In this document: piece after piece, positions 229-47,572 of the stretch
Layout: each line of letters begins with the position of its first letter
How positions within the stretch are numbered: position 1 is the first letter of the stretch
Translations under genes and position numbers: made by a program
Notes under the pieces: model-generated
Told to the model about the DNA's origin: nothing
Seen by the model: only the letters and a program-made list of their open reading frames with translations
The model's database searches: none
Assembly: GCA_041393965.1 (NCBI GenBank)
Contig: JAWKJB010000002.1
Span: 339 to 64,338, forward strand
Source: Acidimicrobiia bacterium
Lineage (GTDB): Bacteria > Actinomycetota > Acidimicrobiia > Spongiisociales > UBA5794
Length of the DNA: 64,000 nt
Reading direction: 5' to 3'

Positions 229-969
229 GTGTCGCCGTTCCGGCCACAGGCCAACCGCATCCGCGATGCTGCCTACAGCCGCGACGATCTCAAGAAGTTC
301 CTCATCGAAGCGGACTTCCAGGTCGGAACCGCACACAGCTTCCAAGGCGACGAACGGGATCTCATGATCTTCTCTCCGGTCGTCACAGATGGGATCGCCT
401 ACGGCTCGGTACGATTCTTGAACGCGAACTCGAACCTGTTCAACGTCGCAGTCACACGCGCACGTGCTGCACTCGTCGTCGTCGGTGACGCCAACTCTGA
501 GGCGATCAAGGGGGTGACATATCTCGCAGCGTTCCGCGACTACGCAATGGATGTGAAGGATGAGCCAGCGCTTCTTGACGGACTCGTCAAAGTCGATCAT
601 GGCCCTACCTACCCGGACGTTGTGAATCCTGACCAGGTCTCGACATGGGAACGCCTCTTCTATCGGGAGTTGTACGCGGCCGGAATTGTCACATCACCAC
701 AAGTGCCAATTGAGAACTACCGCCTCGACTTGGCTGTCATCGATGGCGTCCGACGTCTCGACATCGAAGTTGACGGCGAGCACTACCACCGCGCATGGAG
801 CGGGGAGCTCGCCAGACGCGATCAGCTGCGCAACCAGCGGTTGATCGAACTCGGCTGGGACATCCAACGGTTCTGGGTTTATCAGATCCGCGACGATATG
901 AAGCGCTCGGTTGCTCGTGTCCGCTGGTGGCTCGAGAACGAGGGGCCGACGACTCGTAGCCGAGGCTGA
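229..969 (+). pseudogene. Superfamily-I helicase C-terminal domain (AAA_12-like; SFQGDERD, NVAVTRAR motifs) fused to a DUF559/Vsr-like endonuclease domain. The N-terminal helicase core is missing; upstream same-frame ORF 10-198 ends at an in-frame TAG at 196-198.
   Basis: Translation shows helicase motifs V/VI followed by the DUF559-like segment DLAVIDGVRRLDIEVDGEHYH. Same frame as ORF 10-198 but separated by a stop; no upstream helicase motifs I-IV in the window. Confidence 0.55.
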
Positions 970-9283: not shown

Positions 9284-9394
9284 CCCGAGGGGCTCTGGAG
9301 AGTCGGGTTGTCCCGGCTGAGACCTCGTAAACCAGCGAGGATATCCATCGAACCTGAACCGGATCATGCCGGCGCAGGGATCGAGTTCCTCGGG
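9284..9394 (+). ncRNA. TPP (THI-box) riboswitch
   Basis: P1 CCGAGG...CCTCGG; P3 CGGGttgtCCCG followed by GCTGAGA; then GAACCTGAACCGGATCATGCCGGCGCAGGGA, matching the conserved ACCUGAUCYGGAUAAUGCCAGCGUAGGGA core. Confidence 0.85.
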
Positions 9395-9503
9395 CTTTCT
9401 TGATGAATCCGCCGCCACCGCGGCCGCTTCCCTACTTTCTCTCCCGTCCGTGGTCGCGCCTTGCTCGAGAGCCCGCTTGGTGTACGGCTTGCGATCGGAG
9501 TAG

Positions 9504-9519
9504 TTATCACATATGATAA
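9504..9519. promoter_or_regulatory. AT-rich inverted repeat TTATCA-N4-TGATAA immediately before/overlapping the start codon of the AbiEii-like gene
   Basis: Seen directly; sits in a ~40-bp AT-rich island (agtagttatcacatatgataagtatatggtccatatg). Confidence 0.4.
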
Positions 9520-9523
9520 GTAT

Positions 9524-10213
9524 ATGGTCCATATGAGTGCAACACTGAGAACGGTCTTGGCGTCGGCTGCACTGCTGCAGGAGGTCGTGCCTGACGCCGT
9601 GTTGGTGGGTGGAGCAGCTGCGGCGCTGCATGCCGGTCACCGAGACTCGTTTGATCACGACCATGTCCTTGCCGATTTGGTGGAGCGGTACGAAGCCGTA
9701 CTGGAGGCAGTCGAGGCGACAGACGGGTGGGCAACCTCAGTGCGGGCTTCGAAACCGCCGTTCACGATCATGGGCAGCTTGTGGGGTGTTGAGGCAGGCC
9801 TTCGCCAGATGCGCCGCACCCGACCGCTCGAGACCTGTGAGATTGACCTGGATGAGGGGGCGGTTGTGGTGGCTCCAACGGCACCAGAGACACTCCGTGT
9901 GAAGGCGTTTCTGGTCGTGCAACGCAATGTGGTTCGTGACTATCTGGATGTGGTGGCACTCACTGAACACCTCGGATTCGGCAACGCCGTCGAGATCCTC
10001 TCCCGGATCGACGACTACTACACGGATCGATCAAACGAGCACGGCTCAGTCCTGACCTCGCTCGTGATCGCCCTTGCTGATCCCGCACCTCGGGACAGCG
10101 AGGTGATCGGCGAGCTTCCCCGCTACAAGGGACTCAAGGAGCGATACCACCGCTGGGAAGATGTGGTCGAGCTGTGCCAAGCCCTGGCGCTTCGACTCGG
10201 TGGTGCTCTTTAA
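9524..10213 (+). CDS. AbiEii/AbiGii-family (DUF1814-like) nucleotidyltransferase-like protein
   Basis: N-terminal LVGGAAAALHAGHRDSFDHDHVL matches the AbiEii GG...HR.S.DID signature, with DHDH in place of DID; C-terminal K..F...QR...RDYLDVVAL. Stop overlaps the next start (TAATG). Confidence 0.6.
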   Translation: MVHMSATLRTVLASAALLQEVVPDAVLVGGAAAALHAGHRDSFDHDHVLADLVERYEAVLEAVEATDGWATSVRASKPPFTIMGSLWGVEAGLRQMRRTRPLETCEIDLDEGAVVVAPTAPETLRVKAFLVVQRNVVRDYLDVVALTEHLGFGNAVEILSRIDDYYTDRSNEHGSVLTSLVIALADPAPRDSEVIGELPRYKGLKERYHRWEDVVELCQALALRLGGAL

Positions 10214-17448: not shown

Positions 17449-17490
17449 TGCGGGAGGGCTCCCTCCTCGCCAGACAGCTTCTATTATTCC

Positions 17491-17545
17491 GCCGCGGCGA
17501 TGGAGCTCGCCGAAAGCGCCCGACGGGCTGATGGCTCCTATTGAG
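17491..17545 (+). ncRNA. Fluoride riboswitch (crcB RNA motif)
   Basis: GCGGCGAUGGAGCUCGCC GAAAGCGCC CGACGGG CUGAUGGCUCC UAUUG aligns with the T. petrophila fluoride riboswitch (GGCGAUGGnnnnCGCC...AAnCnGCC...CUGAUGnnnCCU). Confidence 0.9.
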
Positions 17546-17640
17546 ACCACCCATCGAGGAGCCTCGTGTTTGAGCGGACCCGCGAACGACGACGATCTTG
17601 TACGGACCTGATCCGGCGGCTCGCGGCGCCCGGAGCGGTG

Positions 17641-17991
17641 ATGGCCGGTGGCCTCCTGGGATCGGGTCTGCGGGTGGCAGTCGTTGACCTGCTCCCGACA
17701 ACTCCGGGCCGTTTCCCGACGACCACGCTTGCGGTGAACCTCGCAGGTTCGCTCCTCGTCGGTTTCTACCTCGCTCGGCGGCAACGCGCCGTCATCGCCG
17801 AGTGGTCGCTACGGTTCTGGGCGATCGGGGTGCTCGGCTCGTTCACCACCTTCTCGATGTTCAGCGTCGAGGTGTTCGGGCTTCTCGACATGGACGCGAC
17901 TGTGGTTGCCGTCGGCTATGTCGGGGCATCGCTGCTCGGGGGCGTCGCGGCGGCGCTTGTCGGTAGACGGCTCGGAACGGTGGGCTGGTGA
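17641..17991 (+). CDS. crcB: Fluoride ion channel CrcB/FluC (subunit 1)
   Basis: 4-TM small protein with the GSFTTFSMF motif; directly downstream of the fluoride riboswitch. Confidence 0.8.
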   Translation: MAGGLLGSGLRVAVVDLLPTTPGRFPTTTLAVNLAGSLLVGFYLARRQRAVIAEWSLRFWAIGVLGSFTTFSMFSVEVFGLLDMDATVVAVGYVGASLLGGVAAALVGRRLGTVGW

Positions 17992-18338
17992 CGATCGTTG
18001 TGGCCGTCGTGGCAGGATCGGTCGGAGCTGTGGTGCGCTACGGGCTATCGGGCGCCGTTCAGCGTCGCAGCAGCTCCCTGCTGCCGCTCGGCACCGCCGC
18101 TGTGAACCTCGTCGGAGCGTTCCTGTTGGGGGTCGTCGTCGGGATCGGCGCCAGTACGCTGTGGTCGGTTGCGACGATGGGCCTCACGGGCGGCCTGTCG
18201 ACCTTCTCAACATGGATGGTCGAGACCGTCGAGCTCGGTGTCAATCCGAGGCCGACACGACGGGCCATCGTGAACCTCACGCTGATGACCGTGCTGGGGG
18301 TCGTACTGGCGGCTGCCGGTTACTACCTCGGGAATTGA
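17988..18338 (+). CDS. crcB: Fluoride ion channel CrcB/FluC (subunit 2)
   Basis: Paralogous 4-TM protein, GGLSTFSTW motif; 4-nt overlap. Confidence 0.8.
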   Translation: MTIVVAVVAGSVGAVVRYGLSGAVQRRSSSLLPLGTAAVNLVGAFLLGVVVGIGASTLWSVATMGLTGGLSTFSTWMVETVELGVNPRPTRRAIVNLTLMTVLGVVLAAAGYYLGN

Positions 18339-23529: not shown

Positions 23530-24546
23530 ATGTTGACGGTGGTGACTGGTGCATCCGGATTCCTGGGAGCCGTATTGGTGCGGGAGTTGCTTGCCAAGGG
23601 GCGACAGGTTCGGGCTGTTGATCTCGAACGGGGATCCGCACTTGGGGGCTTGGATGTCGAGTGGAGGTCGGCCGATGTACTTGACCCGTCGAGTCTCGAT
23701 ACCGCATTCGACGGTGCCGGTGTCGTGTATCACCTCGCGGCGGTGATCTCCGTGACCGGTGACCCGACCGGTCGAGTGTGGGCCACCAATGTCGGGGGCG
23801 TCCGAAATGTTGCGCGAGCAGCATTGAAGGCGAATGTGCGCCGACTGATCCATTGCAGCTCGGTGCACGCCTTCGACCTCGAGTCGGCAGCGTCGGTGGA
23901 CGAAAACAGTTCCCGTGCAACGGCGGCTCACCTCCCCGTGTACGACCGCTCGAAAGCTGCGGGCGAAGCTGAGCTTCGCAGTGTCATCGAATCGGGTCTC
24001 GACGCCGTGATCGTCAACCCCACGGGCGTTATCGGACCATACGACTTCGGACCTTCCCGGATGGGGCGAGTGTTTCTCGCGATGTTCCGTCGTCGGCTAC
24101 CCGCCGTCATCGACGGTTCCTTCGACTGGGTCGATGTGCGCGACGCGGCATCGAGCATGCTTGCCGCAGAGGTGAAGGGACGCTCCGGCGAGAACTATCT
24201 CCTGCCGGGCCATCACTTGTCTCTCGCAGATCTCGCAGCGATCGCGGCCGATGTGACCGGCCACCGCCGGCGCCTAATCACGCTCCCCATGTGGTTCGCA
24301 AGGATCTGGGGACCGCTCGCCGATGTCGTGAGCAGGCGAAGCGGTGACCCCTTGTGGTACACCCGTGAGTCGATCCACGCGCTCCGGTTCAGCCCGACGG
24401 TGAACGGCGCAAAAGCCGCTGCGGAACTGGATCACGATCCGAGACCGATGCACGAGACCGTCTCGGACATGTACGAGTGGTTCAAACAGCGTGGCCTGCT
24501 TGGCGAGGAGAACGGCCACGCGTACCCAGGGTTCCCGTTCAACTAA
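23530..24546 (+). CDS. NAD-dependent epimerase/dehydratase (extended SDR) family protein
   Basis: TGASGFLG Rossmann motif; YxxxK (YDRSKAAGE). Confidence 0.75.
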   Translation: MLTVVTGASGFLGAVLVRELLAKGRQVRAVDLERGSALGGLDVEWRSADVLDPSSLDTAFDGAGVVYHLAAVISVTGDPTGRVWATNVGGVRNVARAALKANVRRLIHCSSVHAFDLESAASVDENSSRATAAHLPVYDRSKAAGEAELRSVIESGLDAVIVNPTGVIGPYDFGPSRMGRVFLAMFRRRLPAVIDGSFDWVDVRDAASSMLAAEVKGRSGENYLLPGHHLSLADLAAIAADVTGHRRRLITLPMWFARIWGPLADVVSRRSGDPLWYTRESIHALRFSPTVNGAKAAAELDHDPRPMHETVSDMYEWFKQRGLLGEENGHAYPGFPFN

Positions 24547-24653
24547 AAGGTCAACTTCAGCCCACGGAACACCAGGGTTCATCTGTGGGCCAGAATGTAC
24601 CTTTCATCTGTGGGCCAGAGTGTACCTTTTCGTGCAACGCGAACCCGGGGTAC
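24522..24653. repeat. MITE-like element copy 1 (~132 bp). It has 29-bp imperfect terminal inverted repeats (GTACCCAGGGTTCCCGTTCAACTAAAAGG ... CCTTTTCGTGCAACGCGAACCCGGGGTAC) and an internal 24-bp tandem duplication (TCATCTGTGGGCCAGAATGTACCTT x2).
   Basis: Seen directly. Its left TIR is identical to the left TIR of copy 2 at 46609 and encodes the last 8 codons and stop of the epimerase gene. Confidence 0.6.
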
Positions 24654-24673
24654 GCGTCTATCGATCGGCGTCT

Positions 24674-25282
24674 TCAGTCGCGGAGGCCCTTGCCCTCGAG
24701 GATCCTGTCAACGCAGCGGTCCACGCGCGTTTCGCGGGTCTTGGCTTGCTTCGCGCTCGAGATGTGCAGGTTGTATTCGCGTTGCCGGCCGGGCGTGAGC
24801 CCTTCGAACGCCGCCTTGAGCGCCGGGTCGCGGTCGAGCCGGTCTTGGAGTTCGTCGACCAGGACGAGCTCGGGGGCGGGACCAACATCGAGACCGGCTT
24901 CCTCCACCTCGATCGCCTCTTCAACGAGGACTCTGACGGTGTCCTCCAACCGGTTGGTGTCATCCACCGAAGTGAACCGCATGCGTCGCGCCGCACGGGA
25001 ATTCGGCCCGACCGCCTCGAGAACCCCTGCGGGATCGTCCAGCAAGGCACCCTTGAAGAACATGAGGGCGAGAAACTCGTTCATCTCCTGGAGGATGGCG
25101 ATGTTCTTGCCACCATGCGTGTAGCACGGTTTGCCCCACTTGATCTCCTCGGTGAGCCCACAGCCCAGCAGGAGTGGCCGCACGGCAGCCATCTCCTCTG
25201 GCCACTTGTCCGACCTTTCGATGTAGGCATCGACTCGTGGATTCGTCAACTCGTCTGCCTTGTCTCGACAATCGCTCCGCAA
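24674..25282 (-). CDS. YdeI/OmpD-associated (DUF1801-type) family protein
   Basis: NPRVDAYIE...LTPGRQREYNLHISSAKQAKTRETRVDRCVDRILEGKGL C-terminal signature. Confidence 0.6.
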   Translation of the reverse strand: MRSDCRDKADELTNPRVDAYIERSDKWPEEMAAVRPLLLGCGLTEEIKWGKPCYTHGGKNIAILQEMNEFLALMFFKGALLDDPAGVLEAVGPNSRAARRMRFTSVDDTNRLEDTVRVLVEEAIEVEEAGLDVGPAPELVLVDELQDRLDRDPALKAAFEGLTPGRQREYNLHISSAKQAKTRETRVDRCVDRILEGKGLRD

Positions 25283-28568: not shown

Positions 28569-31124
28569 TCAGGGGATCGTGACCTGTACGAAGCCGCCGT
28601 GGCAGGTGGAGAGATCCGTGAGCTGACAGTTCGCGTTTCCGACCGCATCGACGGCTCGTACGCGCACCTCGTACACCCCCAACGAACTGAAGGGGCCGAA
28701 CTTGTTCGTGTAGATCCCAGTTCGGTCTCGCAGCATCAGGCCCCAGAACACGAATGGGTTCTTTCCCGATCGGAAGAACACCGAGACGGTTCCGATCCCA
28801 CTCGGGTCGGTCACTGAGGCCGTGAGCATCGATACATCCGGGGGGTTCCCGTTCGTGAAGATGGTGGCCGGATCGGCCTGAAACCCGGACACCTTCGGGC
28901 CGGTCGTGTCAGGAGCGACCGAGGTGGTTGGTGCTGGCGCAGTGGTTGTCGTGGTCGGCGCGGCCGATGAGGTGGTCGTGGTGGATGGCTCGGGCGCCGT
29001 GGTCGGCGTCGCGGCGCTCGATGTGGTGGCGTAGGACCCCGTGGCGTCCCCGGGGTCCACTGTCGCATCGCCGGGGGGTTCGTCGCCGGGTGGGTCGGCT
29101 TCGGGGTCGAATCCGATCGAGTCCTGTCGCTCGAACAGCACCGGGCCCCCGACGGCGGGGGAGGGCTCGCTCATCGCTTCCTGCAACGCTTCAGATGCCG
29201 CGGTCGTCGGGACTCGGACTGTGGTCCACACGAAGAGCCCGGCCGAGGTGAGAGCGGCAATGGCGAGGAAGGATGCTCCCACTCTCGCATAGGCGGTTTG
29301 GGTCCAAAAGAGCCCGACCGCCGCAAGGCCCGCGAGGGCCGTTGCGCTCAAGAAGACCCATGGAGGCAGGAGCGGCTGGCAATCGAGGCAACCCGGTGGT
29401 TCGACACCGACGGCGAATCGGACGAGCCTGAACCGCACAGAGGGCTCGCCGCCACCGGTTGGTTCACCGTCGGATGCGACGATGCTGTGGTGTGTCGCCG
29501 TGTAGGTGCCAGGCTCGAGGCAGGACGACTCCGCGACCAGCCCCGCGGTTCGCACCTCGAGCGGGATACACATCTCGCCGGGGGCCTCCACCGCGACCGC
29601 TCGTGTCGGCACGGGCAGCGTGCGGAAACCTGAGGCCTCGACGAGGGACTGACCGGCAACATCGAGGGGCCACCAACCCAGCTCCCATCCGATCGCGGCC
29701 GTCAGCCCTTCGTAGCCGATCAGATAGGCGCCCCATGACACATCGAGGGTCTCGTGGCGCTCGAGGTCGAAGGAGTACTCGATCGCCACATTCCCGTTCA
29801 CCCCGGTCGATGTGATGATCTCTCCCGGCCGGGCATGGCAACGATCGGGATTGCCGAGAAACGCGACATAGTCGCCTCCGGACCGCCAGCCGACCGTGTC
29901 GAGATGCTGGTGAGGGTTGTACAACGAAAGATCCGAATCCTCTTCACCGACATAGAAGTAGCCCTGGGGAAGGCAGTCGGCCCATAGGTACTCCTCGATC
30001 GGGGCCGACGGGAGCAAGAACGCTGTCGTGGACATGGGCGGCGAGAAGGTGACGGATTCGTTGTTGCCGATGTGCCACACATCTTCCCGAGGGCAGGGAA
30101 TGTCGAAGACGGGCTGGCCCCCTGGCCCGGACGCGCCAAGGTTCTGAGGAGCGACGCGGATCGGGGCATCGATCCCATCGGCTGGCCAGCAGAACACCCC
30201 AAGACCAGACGAATCGCCGAGAAGCCACGGTCGCGCCATGATGAAGATGTCGCCGGGACCGATCGCGTCACCGTCGTGGAAGACCGTGATGCGATGGACT
30301 TTGAGGGTCCACAGATTGTTCCATCCCCCGCTTTGTGATACGAGATCAGCGTCATCGAGGGCATCCCCAAGACCGGACGGTCTGAAGCCGGAACTGGGAT
30401 CGATAAGGCGGTTGGACGGGTCGGCCTCGACATAGGTGATCTCAAGCGCTGCGGGAGCCCCTCCGTCCGATGCGGCGATCTCGAGCCCCGCGCCGTCGAA
30501 GTGGCCAGCCGGATCCCGGATCGTGAACGCGATGTCCAACCCGTTCTGCCAGCTGACACCACTTCGAACCGCCGTCAGGAGCTCCGTGACATCGATCGGA
30601 TAGACCTGGCCTTCAACCCAATCGGCGGGCACGGCAACCGCCCAGCCAACATCGTCGCCGAGATCCGTTCCCGAACACGCTGGCGCATTGCCGGAGTTGA
30701 TTTCGCCGGCTGGGGCCCTCGGCCCTGCGTACACGGTGAGCCAGCGGGTCGAACCGTAGGTAGTGACGGGCGCCGCTGCGGTGGCGTTCAGCGTGGCGTG
30801 ACTGATCGCCAGCTCTTCGGGGAACGCAACATTGCGAAACAGGAGGGAGGCCATCGCCTCGTCACCGCCGTTGGCCCCGATCGCAAGGTCGCTGGCTGTG
30901 GTGTTGAAAGCGGTGTTGCACGGGTAAGCCTCCCCAGACGCGGGACGGGTGACGGTGATGTCGTCGGCCGGGTGCGACACGTGATGTGTCGTTGTGAACC
31001 CGTCGCTCGTTGCACCCGCGGATGCCGACACGATCACCATCAAGACGACGAAGATCGTCCCGATGATGGCGGCCGTGACGAGTTGTCGGCCAGGGATGCA
31101 GATTGTGCGGTCCTGCAAGAACAT
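28569..31124 (-). CDS. Large membrane-anchored surface protein: N-terminal TM, ~600-aa extracellular region, two TM helices, Pro/Thr/Ser-rich linker, ~110-aa C-terminal domain shared with the 35965-36846 protein
   Basis: Start at the internal ATG 31124 (MFLQDRTICIPGRQLVTAAIIGTIFVVLMVIV). The C-terminal TGPKVS...ASVTDPSGIGTVSVFF...GIYTNKFGPF...VRAVDAVGN is paralogous to the C-terminus of the 35965-36846 protein. Confidence 0.6.
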   Translation of the reverse strand: MFLQDRTICIPGRQLVTAAIIGTIFVVLMVIVSASAGATSDGFTTTHHVSHPADDITVTRPASGEAYPCNTAFNTTASDLAIGANGGDEAMASLLFRNVAFPEELAISHATLNATAAAPVTTYGSTRWLTVYAGPRAPAGEINSGNAPACSGTDLGDDVGWAVAVPADWVEGQVYPIDVTELLTAVRSGVSWQNGLDIAFTIRDPAGHFDGAGLEIAASDGGAPAALEITYVEADPSNRLIDPSSGFRPSGLGDALDDADLVSQSGGWNNLWTLKVHRITVFHDGDAIGPGDIFIMARPWLLGDSSGLGVFCWPADGIDAPIRVAPQNLGASGPGGQPVFDIPCPREDVWHIGNNESVTFSPPMSTTAFLLPSAPIEEYLWADCLPQGYFYVGEEDSDLSLYNPHQHLDTVGWRSGGDYVAFLGNPDRCHARPGEIITSTGVNGNVAIEYSFDLERHETLDVSWGAYLIGYEGLTAAIGWELGWWPLDVAGQSLVEASGFRTLPVPTRAVAVEAPGEMCIPLEVRTAGLVAESSCLEPGTYTATHHSIVASDGEPTGGGEPSVRFRLVRFAVGVEPPGCLDCQPLLPPWVFLSATALAGLAAVGLFWTQTAYARVGASFLAIAALTSAGLFVWTTVRVPTTAASEALQEAMSEPSPAVGGPVLFERQDSIGFDPEADPPGDEPPGDATVDPGDATGSYATTSSAATPTTAPEPSTTTTSSAAPTTTTTAPAPTTSVAPDTTGPKVSGFQADPATIFTNGNPPDVSMLTASVTDPSGIGTVSVFFRSGKNPFVFWGLMLRDRTGIYTNKFGPFSSLGVYEVRVRAVDAVGNANCQLTDLSTCHGGFVQVTIP

Positions 31125-31257
31125 GGCAACATCCTGCCGGACGGGGGTTGCGAAAAGGTTACCGATCGTCCTCGGCCGGTGCGGTGCCAACGACGACGAC
31201 GGCGGGATGCTCGCTGCTCCAGCTGGGTAGATTGAGCCGGGAGACGGAAAGGACCGC

Positions 31258-32385
31258 ATGCGCCCACAAACAGTGGACGAGAACCTGTTCGATGGACTTG
31301 CCGCCCGCCGAGGGACTTCTTTGGTTTCTATCGTTATCCCAACCCACGAGCGGGGTCGCGAGGTCACCCAGGACCCGATCAGGTTCAAGAACCAGGTGTC
31401 GCGTATCGACGAAGAACTGGAATCCCTTGGATGGAGACGGCGCAAACGAGCCGCGCATCTCCAAGGCGCCAAGGACCTCGTCGACGACCGTGAGTTCTGG
31501 GAACACCAAGGGCCGGGTCTCGCGTTCTACCTTGCCGACGACGGTGCTTCGTGGGCGATCGCGCTGGGCCATCGGCCCGAGCCTGCATTCTGGATCATGC
31601 CGACATTCGCCGTTCGGCCGCTGCTGATGGAGCTCACCGCTGTCGAGTTGGATGCTCTCGCCTTGAGCCGCGGCTTGGTCGGCCTCTACACGGTTTCGGC
31701 CCGGTCGGTGCGCCGTGTCGATGCCGACCTACCGGCCTCGTTCGATGATGTGAACTGGTTCGTGGATCGCGAGACCCAGCGGCAACAGCACCCCGACCGT
31801 GTCGGATCCGATCGGAATCGCCACGGTCACGATCCCAGATCCCAGGAGCACGAGGATCTCGCCCGATTCCTCCGCGAGGTGGACCGCGCCTTGCCTCCCG
31901 GCCCGCGAGAGCTGCCCCTCGTCGTCCTCGGTGACGACGACCTCGTCGCTCGATTCGCGAACATCACGGATCGTGATACGACAAGTCCGAACCGCAGCGG
32001 GTTTCCGACCTCGGTGTCTGATGAGCAGATTCGCGACATGGCGAAACCGATCGTCGAGGACGCCGAACAGGAACGCACGAACCGGTTCATCACCAAGGCA
32101 GTGGATCGAGCGGGCAGCGGGCAGGGAACCAGCCAGATCACCGAAGCCATCCGGGCCGCCCTGTCAGGTCGGGTCGAGCTGCTGATCACCGACATCGGCG
32201 CCGACCCGATCTGGGGGCGCATCGATGAGGCAACGCACCGTGTCACCGTGACCGAGGACCGGGGCGCCGACGATGTGGATCTCCTCGATCGACTGGTTGT
32301 GCTCACCACAAGCAACGGAGGCGATGTGTACGGTGTCATGGATGCCGTCGACGGACACCCGTTCATCGCGACCTACCGCTACTGA
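31258..32385 (+). CDS. Conserved hypothetical protein (possible eRF1/Dom34-like fold; speculative)
   Basis: 375-aa ORF with good protein-like composition; no diagnostic motif recognised. Confidence 0.45.
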   Translation: MRPQTVDENLFDGLAARRGTSLVSIVIPTHERGREVTQDPIRFKNQVSRIDEELESLGWRRRKRAAHLQGAKDLVDDREFWEHQGPGLAFYLADDGASWAIALGHRPEPAFWIMPTFAVRPLLMELTAVELDALALSRGLVGLYTVSARSVRRVDADLPASFDDVNWFVDRETQRQQHPDRVGSDRNRHGHDPRSQEHEDLARFLREVDRALPPGPRELPLVVLGDDDLVARFANITDRDTTSPNRSGFPTSVSDEQIRDMAKPIVEDAEQERTNRFITKAVDRAGSGQGTSQITEAIRAALSGRVELLITDIGADPIWGRIDEATHRVTVTEDRGADDVDLLDRLVVLTTSNGGDVYGVMDAVDGHPFIATYRY

Positions 32386-35964: not shown

Positions 35965-36846
35965 ATGATGTCCGTGAAGGCGGCGCTGTTCGTTGGCGCA
36001 GCTGTCATCGTTGGTGGGGCTGCTGTGGGGGTCGCCGCCGACCAAACCGGCGCCCTCTCTCCGCTTCCCGAACCGAGTGTCTCGGCTCACCTCGACGAGG
36101 TTCCCTACCTGGAGTGCCCTGACGGGGATCGACTCGGCGAACTGCACCGGGGAGATCGGGTGTTCGCAACGGGACGAACCGACGACCTCGCGTGGTTGGA
36201 GGTCCGCGCCCCGTACGATGTGGCAACCGGCGTGTGGGTGGAGGCGGCCTGGCTGACACCCGACGCCGACCTCGACGCCCTCCCGGTGGTGTCCTGCCAA
36301 ACGGATACCGCGCCTGCGCCGACCACGACGACTACGACGAGACCCCTCGCTCCTTCGACCACCCTTGCTGGGGCGACCACCTCAACCACGATCGGGCCGA
36401 CCTCGACCACGAACGCTCCGACCTCGACCACGAACGCTCCGACCACCACCAGTACCACCGCCACGACGACCACGACAACCACCGTGCCCGACACCACCGG
36501 ACCGACGATTTCGAACCTTGCATCCGAAGAAGCCCAGATCTGGGAGGAAGCCAATTACGGGGGATGCCCGACCCAAGTTCACACGACGATCATCAGCGCG
36601 TCGGTGAGCGACCCGTCCGGTGTCGGCACCGTGATCCTCGGATGGGAGGTTGGCTCGGCGAGTGGGAGCACACCGATGGGACATGTGGGAAGTATCTACA
36701 CGGCTGAACTCGGGCCGTTCGACGACACCACCGTGAGTGCCGATGAACCGATCTACCTATCGGTGACTGCCCATGACACCGTCGGCAACCCGACCATGGT
36801 CGACTCGATCGACCTTGTCGTCTTGAGAAACTGCACGATCGCATGA
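35965..36846 (+). CDS. Secreted protein with signal peptide, Thr-rich linker and the same C-terminal ~110-aa domain as the 28569-31124 protein
   Basis: PDTTGPTIS...ASVSDPSGVGTV...SIYTAELGPF...VTAHDTVGN aligns to the large protein's C-terminus. Confidence 0.6.
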   Translation: MMSVKAALFVGAAVIVGGAAVGVAADQTGALSPLPEPSVSAHLDEVPYLECPDGDRLGELHRGDRVFATGRTDDLAWLEVRAPYDVATGVWVEAAWLTPDADLDALPVVSCQTDTAPAPTTTTTTRPLAPSTTLAGATTSTTIGPTSTTNAPTSTTNAPTTTSTTATTTTTTTVPDTTGPTISNLASEEAQIWEEANYGGCPTQVHTTIISASVSDPSGVGTVILGWEVGSASGSTPMGHVGSIYTAELGPFDDTTVSADEPIYLSVTAHDTVGNPTMVDSIDLVVLRNCTIA

Positions 36847-38732
36847 CGATGTCCTTGCGATCGATCGCTCTGTTCGGACTGCTCGCCATTTCAGGTTTCG
36901 CAGCGGGCCTGCTGATTTCGGACGCTCTCATGGACGATCCCGTGGTCACGCTCCCCGAACCGGCGCAGTACTACCCGATTCCTCAGATCGCCGTTGCCGC
37001 TGAGCCGGTGGCCGACGGGGATCCCGGCGGTGTGATCGGGCCGGTGGAGGTTCCCGCCCCCGCCCCGCTGTTCGAAGAATCGATCCCGGTCTACCCGACG
37101 ATCTACGAAGAGGACGGAACGCCCGTTCCCGATCTCCCGCCAAGCTTGCCGGGCGGCGCCTCATCGACAAGCACCACGACAACAGAGCCTGCCACCACGA
37201 CGACAACGGGGGCCGCCACCACGACGACGCTCACCCAAACGGGGCCTTCACCACCGGCGGCAGGACCCGCAGGAGCGACCGTCACCATCGCTCGGTTCAC
37301 CGACCTATGCGCAAGCAGCCTGACGCCTGCCTGTCCTCCCGGCGTCGGCGCCCTCGTGCTATACGGTGCGGACGGGCCAAAGCCGCCGCCATTGGCGATC
37401 GAGATCGTTCCTGACGCCGATGCCAGCGTGCTGGTGGGGCTGCGATGCGACCCCGGGTGGCCGTCGGGCACCGAGATCCCGGTGGTGCTGTTCAGCAACC
37501 GTCCCTTCAGCCTCCTGCATGTCAGGCTCAAGGCCGCGGACGGCTCCGAACTCGACGCCGTCGTCAACACCAAGTCGGAACCCTCCGAGCACGCGGCATA
37601 CGACACCCGAGTCAAGATGGGAAAGCCGCTCCACCCGACGCTTGCCGAAGGGGCACACACCTGTGTCACGCTTCGAACGGACAAGAAAGGGAAGCCTCCG
37701 GACCGGAATGGCCCGTTCGAAGTCTCCGTCCTTGGATACACGAACGACGACACCGAGTCAAAGTCGGTGCGCTTCACCGGCCACTACACGGCACAGCGGC
37801 CACCCGTGCGAATCTTCCCCCTCGACGCACACCGTGCCTATGTCGTTGTGCCTCAGCGAGCCAACGACACCGTCAATGTGTGGGCATACGATCAGCGCGA
37901 AGCCGAGTCGGTTGGCCGGTACGACGCGGGATGCAGCCTGCCGCCGGCGGACACGACCGGTGCTCTTGCACTGCGTCGCTCCCCGCTCAAGGGTCCGACA
38001 CCGGTTGCGACCGGCACAGCCGGCTATCCGTGGGACCGCGACTACAACCGTCAGACGATATGGGATCTCGAACTGCGAGACGCCACCCGGTACACGCTGT
38101 GTGTCAATCACCTCCCTGACGACGAAACCGAAGAGTGGGTGATCGAGACGGCGAACGACCTCGAACTCGATGTGTACGGCGGAGCCCTCCGCCACACGAA
38201 GACTGCGGTCGCCGGCACGCTGCTCGTCCACCTCCTCGGGGTTCCTCATTGCTTTGTCGCAAGCCCCGATGTGCGCCAAGGTGATGGCCGCACCCCGTTC
38301 CCGGATGTGACGGTCTACGGCGACGGAACCTATCCGTGGGGAAGGGGTGCCGACATGTGCCACAGCGCTGGCTGGAGGATCGGGCCGACGATCGAGCTCC
38401 GGGCGTTGTTCCCCGACGGCACAAACAAGGTGTATGGCACGATCGCCGTCCCAACCGCGACGCTCAAGGCGCACTGTCTCCGGGACCTGTCACAGCAACC
38501 ACCGACCGGTCAGCCATGCGAGCAGCATCTCGAGTGGCGCAACCAGAACATCCTCTGTGGGGGAGGGTTCGGCACGCCGAGCTGCAAAGGTGATCTGTTC
38601 TTCAGCCTCGAAGTCTCGATGTGGATGTCCGACGGGCGAACCAACAACCGTACCAACCCGACGGATTGGGGCATCTCATACATCGCGCACGCCGCCGACC
38701 CGCCCGACACGGTGCCGTTGCCATCGGGTTGA
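36843..38732 (+). CDS. Secreted/anchored cysteine-rich protein with N-terminal signal anchor and Thr-rich linker; translationally coupled (ATGA) to the upstream gene
   Basis: 629 aa; ~14 Cys in the globular part; no recognisable catalytic motif. Confidence 0.55.
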   Translation: MTMSLRSIALFGLLAISGFAAGLLISDALMDDPVVTLPEPAQYYPIPQIAVAAEPVADGDPGGVIGPVEVPAPAPLFEESIPVYPTIYEEDGTPVPDLPPSLPGGASSTSTTTTEPATTTTTGAATTTTLTQTGPSPPAAGPAGATVTIARFTDLCASSLTPACPPGVGALVLYGADGPKPPPLAIEIVPDADASVLVGLRCDPGWPSGTEIPVVLFSNRPFSLLHVRLKAADGSELDAVVNTKSEPSEHAAYDTRVKMGKPLHPTLAEGAHTCVTLRTDKKGKPPDRNGPFEVSVLGYTNDDTESKSVRFTGHYTAQRPPVRIFPLDAHRAYVVVPQRANDTVNVWAYDQREAESVGRYDAGCSLPPADTTGALALRRSPLKGPTPVATGTAGYPWDRDYNRQTIWDLELRDATRYTLCVNHLPDDETEEWVIETANDLELDVYGGALRHTKTAVAGTLLVHLLGVPHCFVASPDVRQGDGRTPFPDVTVYGDGTYPWGRGADMCHSAGWRIGPTIELRALFPDGTNKVYGTIAVPTATLKAHCLRDLSQQPPTGQPCEQHLEWRNQNILCGGGFGTPSCKGDLFFSLEVSMWMSDGRTNNRTNPTDWGISYIAHAADPPDTVPLPSG

Positions 38733-45829: not shown

Positions 45830-46576
45830 TCATCCTGCTCCGAGACTACGCCCTCCACATACATAGAGGATCTGGCCGGTGACATACGACGACTCGTCTG
45901 CGGCGAGGAACAGCGCCGCGTTACCGATGTCGGCCGGTGTCCCGATCCGGCGTGCGGGGATCGTCTTGATGAGTCGCTCCTGGACATCGTCCTTCAGGCT
46001 CCGGAACAGGGGAGTGTCGACGAGGGCGGGTGCGATCACATTCGCGGTGATGCCGTACCTGGCCATCTCAAGGGCGAGGGTGCGTGTCAGGGAGATCACG
46101 GCCCCTTTGGAAGCGGCGTAGTTGGCCTGTCCAGGACCGCCGAGCCATGCGCGGGACGAGATGTTGATGATCCTGCCGTGGTTGCGGTCCATCATGTGGG
46201 GCGCGACCGCCCGACACATGAGGAATTGGGACTTGAGGTTGACCTCGATGACGGTGTCCCAGTCCTCGTCGGACATCTTCGCCAGCCATCCGTCTCGTGC
46301 CATGCCCACATTGTTGACGAGGATGTCGACGCCACCGAAGGCGTCGATGGCGGAGGCGACGAGTCCCTCGGCGCCCTCCCGCGATGCCACATTCGCCGCG
46401 TGACCGGTGGCTGTGTAGCCAGCGTTCTTGAACTCGTCGACCACTTCGTCGACCCGTTCTGATACGAGATCGTTGACGACCACCTTCGCTCCCGCCGCGG
46501 CGAGCGCCTCAGCGATCCCTTTGCCGATCCCCTGACCCGAGCCGGTGACGATCGCAACTCTGTCCTTCACATTCAC
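45830..46576 (-). CDS. SDR-family oxidoreductase (FabG-like)
   Basis: TGSGQGIG, NNVG, YAASK motifs. Confidence 0.8.
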   Translation of the reverse strand: MNVKDRVAIVTGSGQGIGKGIAEALAAAGAKVVVNDLVSERVDEVVDEFKNAGYTATGHAANVASREGAEGLVASAIDAFGGVDILVNNVGMARDGWLAKMSDEDWDTVIEVNLKSQFLMCRAVAPHMMDRNHGRIINISSRAWLGGPGQANYAASKGAVISLTRTLALEMARYGITANVIAPALVDTPLFRSLKDDVQERLIKTIPARRIGTPADIGNAALFLAADESSYVTGQILYVCGGRSLGAG

Positions 46577-46608
46577 ATTGCTTCCTTTCGTTCGACCCGT
46601 ACCCAGGG

Positions 46609-46729
46609 TTCCCGTTCAACTAAAAGGTGCGCCCTCACCCACAGAACCAGCATCAGGACCTCAGCCGTCGAACCGTCGAGTTTCTGTGGGCCACAGGTGA
46701 CATTTCAGTTGAACGGGAACCCTGGGTAC
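46609..46729. repeat. MITE-like element copy 2 (~121 bp) with near-perfect terminal inverted repeats (GTACCCAGGGTTCCCGTTCAACT...AGTTGAACGGGAACCCTGGGTAC) and an internal CCCACAGAA/TTCTGTGGG inverted pair
   Basis: Seen directly; same TIR as copy 1 at 24522; lies inside the operon between the hydratase stop and the SDR start. Confidence 0.6.
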
Positions 46730-46744
46730 GGGGAGACGCGATGG

Positions 46745-47572
46745 TTATCGGCCTTTGAATTCTGGGGATCGCTTCTCGACGAATGCTTGGATGCCTTCGT
46801 CGCGGTCTTCACTCGCTCGGAGCACGGCGTGGCTCGTCGATTCGAGCTCGAGCCCGGTTTCGAGGTCGGTTTCGGTGGCTCGGTTGATCAGTTCCTTCAC
46901 CCGGTCGTGTGAAAGCGGTGCCCGGCTCGCGATGCGCTCGGCGAGTTCCATCGTTTCGTCCATCAGGTCGTCGTCGGGGACGACCCGGTTGACGAGCCCC
47001 ATCCGGAAGGCGTCCGCAGCAGAGATGTGGTCTGCGGTGAACATGAGCTCCTTTGCGTAGCCCGGGCCGATGAGTCGCGTTGCGCGCTGGGTTCCGCCTG
47101 CACCGGGGAGGCTTCCGACCTTGGCTTCCGGGAAGCCGAGGCGTGCGCTCTCGGTTGCGATGCGGAGGTCGCAGGCGAGTGCCATCTCGAGCCCTCCGCC
47201 GAGTGCATAGCCACGGATCGCCGCGATCACCGGCACATGCAGCGATTCGAATCTGCCGAATACGCTGCGGACCAGCAGCCCGAGCGGATCATGGATCAGA
47301 CCGGCCTCGAACTTGGTTCCGCGGCTCTTGAGGTCTGCTCCGACGCAGAACGCCTTGTCTCCGGCCCCGGTGAGGACCAACGCGCGGGTGTCCGGGTCCT
47401 CTTCGATCTGGTCGAGCAGGTCGCCAATGGTTTCGAGCATCGCGACCGTCATCGCGTTGAGGGCCTTGGGTCGGTTGAGCGTCAGCACACCAACCGAACC
47501 CACGCGTTTGTAGAGCACAAGGTCCTCTTCGACCTCCTCGGTCGAGGTGTCTGCCTTTTCTTCAACGGCCAC
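46745..47572 (-). CDS. Enoyl-CoA hydratase/isomerase (crotonase) family protein
   Basis: [31 protein letters not shown] motifs. Confidence 0.85.

Follow-up and report, generated by a model that had tools for sequence, protein, structure and literature searches.

What is a palindromic, non-coding repeat of about 130 bases that occurs at two unrelated places (n = 2) in the genome of an uncultured marine-type actinobacterium, in one of them forming the last codons and the stop of a housekeeping gene? The question was examined in a stretch of 64,000 nucleotides (64 kb, 64% G+C; hereafter the window, to which all positions refer), in which the annotatable genes are all ordinary metabolic or transport genes. 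An initial annotation of this DNA had described an element with terminal inverted repeats (TIRs) in two copies. The observation is real, and the parts of the element are as follows.

24522 to 24653 (unstranded): copy 1 of the element, 132 nt with GTAC at either end, inside a palindrome that spans 24518–24657.
46599 to 46729 (unstranded): copy 2 of the element, 131 nt with GTAC at either end, inside a palindrome that spans 46596–46732.
24522 to 24551 (+ strand): left TIR of copy 1, with the same sequence as the left arm of copy 2.
24624 to 24653 (− strand): right TIR of copy 1, which has diverged more than any of the other three arms.
24578 to 24629 (+ strand): tandem duplication within copy 1 (unit 25 nt, 2.1 copies) that repeats the inner part of its right arm.

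The two copies lie 22 kb apart. Their four arms can be aligned over about 47 nt, the outer 30 nt being nearly identical in three of the four, and the arm consensus consists of GTACCCAGGGTTCCCGTTCAACTAAAAGGT, about nine variable bases and CCCACAGAA. The outer 29 nt arms of copy 1 match at 24 of 29 positions, exactly as had been claimed; relative to the family consensus the left arm shows no differences (0/29) and the right arm five (5/29), and the right arm likewise has 5/29 mismatches to the other three arms. When extended, the inverted repeat of copy 1 has arms of 51 nt (24518–24568 and 24607–24657) with 78% complementarity. The arms of copy 2 are also 51 nt long, with 82% complementarity, and their outer 26 nt pair perfectly. 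A repeat family that spans the left arms (D9, 34 nt) is 97% identical between the copies. The inner stem is conserved far less than the outer 30 nt and is not kept between the copies, and the central cores are unrelated. The tandem duplication reported for copy 1 is present (96% match, 2.1 copies), with a period of 25 nt rather than 24. Copy 2, which had been placed at 46609–46729, carries the same TIR but starts ten bases further out, at 46599.

Either strand of either copy is predicted to fold as one long RNA hairpin (−74 to −89 kcal/mol; z −7 to −10), the individual values being −73.7 kcal/mol (z −7.3) for copy 1 and −83.6 to −89 kcal/mol (z −9.4 to −10.3) for copy 2. The element contains no intact long ORF, and its six-frame translations are short or fortuitous only. 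With 131–132 nt of non-coding DNA it lies within the size expected of miniature inverted-repeat elements (MITEs; under about 300 bp), and the copies have terminal inverted repeats in common, as MITEs do (four arms, about 47 nt).

The structure was compared with what the window would yield by chance. The 21-mer TACCCAGGGTTCCCGTTCAAC occurs three times in the 64 kb, against 0.00 expected from 100 shuffles, and the two longest inverted repeats of the window are copies 1 and 2; a chance palindrome was rejected on these grounds. A window-wide nhmmer search with a profile of the four arms matched the four arms and the duplicated half-arm only. Segmental duplication was rejected as well, the flanks of the two copies being unrelated.

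The surroundings of copy 1 comprise three features.

23530 to 24546 (+ strand): gene of the NAD-dependent epimerase/dehydratase family, 338 aa; the last seven codons and the stop are element-derived.
24544 to 24546 (+ strand): TAA stop codon of the epimerase gene, within the left arm of copy 1.
24674 to 25282 (− strand): convergent YdeI/OmdA-DUF1801 gene, with 20 nt between its stop and the right end of copy 1.

Copy 1 is thus situated between the convergent epimerase and YdeI/OmdA-DUF1801 genes, with its left arm in frame with the epimerase and supplying the stop, as the initial annotation had it. That annotation had assigned eight codons (AYPGFPFN) to the element; the GTAC-bounded copy includes seven of these in full (YPGFPFN) and, of the Ala codon, the third base. 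The matching stretch of copy 2 is identical to the part that encodes YPGFPFN, but is non-coding there. The NCBI protein of the source MAG (P0001; labelled Acidimicrobiia bacterium, contig of 775,741 bp) is 100% identical over the 338 aa and has the same C-terminal end. The comparison of epimerase C-termini, which had been proposed as a test, covered 120 homologues. The YPGFPFN tail was present in the MAG's own protein and in none of the other 119, whose tails are unrelated and run for 0–30 residues past a conserved ...GLL motif. Such tails indicate that the element was appended to a poorly constrained end of the protein; the conserved domain of the epimerase is intact. The last seven residues should be treated by annotators as element-derived.

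Copy 1 was then removed in silico together with one TA, which gave the junction ...CAC GCG TAC GCG TCT ATC... The frame after removal stays open to 25124, that is, for about 150 extra codons that run antisense through the neighbouring gene, and the nearest stop to the right of copy 1 in any + frame is at 24796. Without the element the epimerase would thus lack its stop, and since simple excision does not restore one, a clean insertion is not the whole history at this site. Judged from the sequence, the original 3' end of the gene must have been lost in an additional event, for which a deletion in the flank or the recombination of two copies into a hybrid element would suffice. The asymmetry of the copy 1 arms (0/29 versus 5/29) fits a hybrid element, without proving one. 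Downstream synteny with the loci of four epimerase relatives (L002–L005) is not conserved, so that none of them offers an empty copy 1 site for comparison; for copy 1, the evidence from relatives consists of the unique protein tail.

Copy 2 lies on a junction between two genes of a minus-strand operon.

46745 to 47572 (− strand): enoyl-CoA hydratase (ECH) gene, directly upstream of copy 2.
45830 to 46576 (− strand): short-chain dehydrogenase (SDR) gene, directly downstream of copy 2.

The order in the operon is TetR, CoA-transferase, ECH, element, SDR and aconitase-like subunits. Copy 2 is placed between the ECH stop (46745–46747) and the SDR start (46576), and the SDR ribosome-binding site, AAAGGAAG, is kept between the element and the start codon. 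Orthologous junctions were obtained by querying metagenome contigs with the ECH protein (70–90% identity, ECH and SDR adjacent, n = 14). In 13 of the 14 loci (70–83% amino-acid identity) the SDR start follows the last ECH codon after 13–25 nt, room for just the stop codon, the Shine-Dalgarno sequence and a spacer. In the window this interval is 171 nt, and the 131 nt element explains the excess. The element is missing from all 14 orthologous ECH-SDR junctions, and no arm was found in the 80 loci compared. Because 13 of the 14 junctions measure 13–25 nt against 171 nt here, copy 2 is, by this comparison of loci, clearly an insertion, and it constitutes the strongest evidence for mobility. With the common arms and the unrelated flanks, this insertion supports the earlier proposal of a small non-autonomous mobile or REP-like element.

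The fourteenth locus (L019), from the closest relative (90% identity), has a spacer of 97 nt. What occupies the junction there is an unrelated sequence, a tandem repeat with a unit of 18 nt (AAGGAAGATGAAGTCTTC, 4.4 copies; positions 400–478 of that locus). The ECH-SDR junction seems to be prone to gaining extra DNA in this lineage.

The same ECH gene with copy 2 was recovered in an independent assembly, as a Logan contig (L006, run SRR28338160) that differs from copy 2 by one SNP in the core (A to T). At its end (position 1116, corresponding to 46601 of the window) this contig lacks the outermost 2 nt of the far arm. The break may hint at a repeat, since de Bruijn assemblers break contigs at sequence present in multiple copies; the contigs of that assembly are, however, generally short. 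Breaks at the arms are to be expected by assemblers.

The ends of the element were inspected for a target-site duplication, as had been suggested. TA or GTAC is indeed found at both copies, yet within the palindromic ends: CG-TA-CG borders both copies, and the TA or GTAC at each junction also belongs to the palindrome. Three descriptions fit the ends, namely a 2 bp duplication of TA, a 4 bp duplication of GTAC, or no duplication, with GTAC forming part of the repeat. The duplication readings are inseparable because GTAC is its own reverse complement; a 6 bp target duplication is excluded by copy 2. The palindrome runs 4–5 nt past GTAC, as ACGCG|TA...TA|CGCGT in copy 1 versus CCCG|TA...TA|CGGG in copy 2, and at position −3 a G:C pair in copy 1 corresponds to a C:G pair in copy 2, a compensated difference. 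The corresponding junctions without the element would read CACGCGTA|CGCGTCT and CCCCGTA|CGGGTCG. The occupied sites have half-palindromes of 6 and 5 bases, and only 2 of the 15 unoccupied CGTACG sites in the window reach at least 5, so that the occupied sites are mildly unexpected (p ~0.02). The extended palindrome could reflect a symmetric target preference, such as TA-inserting transposases are known to have. It is also conceivable that the arms reach beyond the sequence common to the copies and are kept matched within each copy.

Relatives of the element were sought in several collections. The exact 21-mer and a degenerate arm pattern (22 specified bases), built to fit all four arms, had no match in 185,579 species-representative genomes, and arm patterns had none in JGI metagenome contigs or IMG/VR viral contigs. 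An 18-mer search gave one match, in a viral contig with non-matching flanks, at the estimated chance rate. Searches of copies 1 and 2 by blastn against plasmids and phages returned nothing, plasmid-borne IS ends included. No Rfam family was found at gathering or permissive thresholds, the single hit being CRISPR-DR24 at noise level (E = 7.7). Concatenated six-frame peptides of the element, intended to find ORFs running into other copies, had no match at E ≤ 10 among 5.8 billion proteins. The element family is thus restricted to its lineage as far as public collections show, and the earlier impression that it has no obvious kinship to described families holds, with no match in Rfam or among plasmids and phages. 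A full-text literature search for MITEs and Acidimicrobiia together found no paper. The initial annotation had also named two findings that would jointly argue for coincidental structure: a TIR confined to the two loci and a C-terminus common to epimerase orthologues. The former agrees with the searches of these collections, which found no further copy of the TIR; the latter is contradicted by the homologues.

No transposase, integrase or Y1 (HUH) enzyme is encoded among the genes of the 64 kb window, and any enzyme that mobilises the element must therefore act in trans.

Several other features of the window were recorded. Upstream of a 250 aa ORF (9461–10213), which has no Pfam match and may encode an unannotated thiamine-related transporter, there is a TPP riboswitch (Rfam RF00059) at 9286–9399 (+) that scores 54.8 bits, slightly over the gathering threshold. 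At 17487–17547 (+), a fluoride riboswitch (RF01734, 48 bits) directly precedes the CrcB gene (17566–17991), which is followed by a second small ORF (17988–18338), the arrangement being that of a typical fluoride-export operon. Tandem repeats of 21 nt (ACCTCGACCACGAACGCTCCG-like, at least 3 copies) at 36379–36484 fall inside a 293 aa ORF (35965–36846), also without a Pfam match, and probably encode a repetitive peptide. Two large ORFs, at 28569–31472 (−, 967 aa) and 36843–38732 (+, 629 aa), have coding-like GC3 and no Pfam match at E ≤ 1e-5. At the window edge, an ORF at 229–969 (+) joins the end of an AAA_12 helicase domain to a restriction-endonuclease-like domain (MTES_1575/DUF559) and probably represents the C-terminal portion of a longer helicase-nuclease gene that the start of the window truncates.

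The reading that is favoured here, with a probability of roughly 0.7, is that of a lineage-restricted, non-autonomous inverted-repeat transposon (a MITE) that is moved in trans. The element would consist of 107–131 nt of non-coding DNA with strongly conserved terminal inverted repeats of about 30 nt, within a recognisable arm of about 47 nt. A transposase encoded elsewhere in the genome would bind the repeats and mobilise the element in trans, and insertion would take place at TA (or GTAC) within a short CG-TA-CG palindrome, possibly with duplication of the TA. What we infer here is that the element transposes at all, that TA is duplicated and that a cut-and-paste enzyme of the DDE type is involved. 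An IS630/Tc1-mariner-like enzyme is the leading guess, although somewhat short of even odds if the element is a MITE. Effects on the host would be incidental: a seven-residue tail on the variable, dispensable C-terminus of the epimerase, and a predicted hairpin of about 50 bp, transcribed inside the ECH-SDR operon, that could serve as an RNase III or mRNA-stability site. Support for the MITE reading comes from the small size, the absence of coding capacity, the two unrelated sites, the one demonstrable insertion and the conserved outer ends; the better conservation of the outer 30 nt than of the inner stem fits an end recognised by a protein better than it fits a mere hairpin. Against it stand the two copies known, the lack of matches to the arms and to element-derived peptides in the collections searched, the want of a known autonomous partner, a duplication that is inseparable from the palindromic ends and the epimerase stop that removal of copy 1 does not restore. 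The extension of the palindrome with a compensated change between the copies is, moreover, not predicted by a simple DDE model.

A reading in which the palindrome as a whole is the unit, of the REP/REPIN or IS200/IS605-derived (PATE) type, and in which a Y1 (HUH) transposase such as RAYT copies it in single-stranded form, without target duplication, is unlikely. The folding of the entire element as one long hairpin would suit it, as would the palindrome past the common ends with its compensated G:C to C:G difference, the lack of an unambiguous direct duplication and the location of both copies outside genes or at a gene end. However, the single arms are not self-palindromic, unlike REP units, which places the element outside the REP/REPIN class; conservation is much stronger in the outer 30 nt than along the inner stem, the window has no RAYT or TnpA(Y1) gene, and the extended palindromes are only modestly unexpected given the unoccupied CGTACG sites (2/15, p ~0.02). 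REPs, short palindromes of 20–40 nt in inverted pairs with an associated RAYT gene, usually number hundreds of copies. A hairpin-propagated element, copied as a folded single strand with its arms kept matched, would be an undescribed mobile-element system of uncultured Acidimicrobiia and not a classical DDE-type MITE. This proposal, which derives from the compensated palindrome extension and from the epimerase stop that excision does not restore, is decidedly unlikely.

If the element did not move at all, it could be a functional structure of the host, for instance a hairpin with a regulatory or processing role, a palindrome bound by a protein, or a bidirectional terminator, present twice by coincidence. 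The predicted structure is very stable on both strands (z −7 to −10), copy 1 lies between convergent genes, in the position of a terminator, and copy 2 is transcribed within an operon. This reading is nevertheless very unlikely, since the element is missing from 14 of 14 orthologous ECH-SDR junctions, its ends have no U-tract or terminator-like site, no Rfam family matches, and the copies have unrelated cores and an inner stem that is not conserved. An intrinsic terminator as such was rejected, none being present at the ends of either copy and the one internal stem being weak (5 bp) and of chance frequency; a promoter was rejected as well, consensus scans of the element having found no promoter-like site. 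A site for site-specific recombination, attC-like or a remnant, is extremely improbable. The arms do contain GTTCAAC ... GTTGAAC, which fits the integron core consensus RYYYAAC / GTTRRRY, and the element is an imperfect palindrome of attC-like length. The core-like heptamers, however, are located 16 nt inside the palindrome and not at its ends, where attC sites have their R''/R' cores, a degenerate match of 7 nt in a 50 nt arm has an estimated chance of about 5%, and the neighbours are conserved housekeeping operon genes. The window holds no integron integrase, other tyrosine recombinase or cassette array. With internal cores and no integrase, membership in the attC class was rejected.

Taken as a MITE, the element represents a new sequence family from uncultured Acidimicrobiia of a familiar kind, MITEs that overlap the 3' end of a gene having been documented already. 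It is a clean example of a small repeat that rewrites the 3' end of a gene and splits a tightly packed operon junction; it offers no new mechanism and no answer to an open question unless propagation as a hairpin is the true reading. In Coxiella burnetii, some copies of QMITE1 and QMITE2 reach into functional genes at the 3' end, the overlap ranging from a few to about 50 bp, and in the Dugway strain a QMITE supplies the C-terminal residues of an extended EnhC (enhC gene); processing of the transcribed stem by RNase III has been discussed as a possibility (PMC5896051). The present element resembles QMITE1 and QMITE2 in being small, non-coding and bounded by inverted repeats, in its stable stem and in the overlap with a gene 3' end. 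It differs in that the host phylum and the sequence are unrelated, and in that Coxiella carries many copies per genome versus the two documented here.

Near-palindromic intergenic repeats of 100–155 nt with terminal inverted repeats of roughly 26 nt are represented by the Correia elements of Neisseria and the enterobacterial ERIC/IRU sequences. They are found in Proteobacteria in hundreds of copies and are co-transcribed with their neighbours, their RNA hairpins affecting the processing and stability of the mRNA; Correia elements duplicate TA. The present element is not known to share sequence similarity with either group, and consensus scans detected no promoter-like site in it. With the MITEs derived from IS630/Tc1-mariner elements (Stowaway-like) it has in common a putative insertion at TA within a symmetric target, long inverted repeats and a length of about 100–150 nt. 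Unlike in those MITEs, the TA is inseparable from the palindromic ends, and neither an IS630-type transposase in the window nor a match to plasmid-borne IS ends was found, so that membership is a guess. Lastly, the Rickettsia palindromic elements (RPEs) are inserted in frame inside ORFs and are translated throughout. As in RPEs, a palindromic repeat here joins protein-coding sequence without destroying the gene, whereas only seven codons are used and the ORF is terminated by the element.
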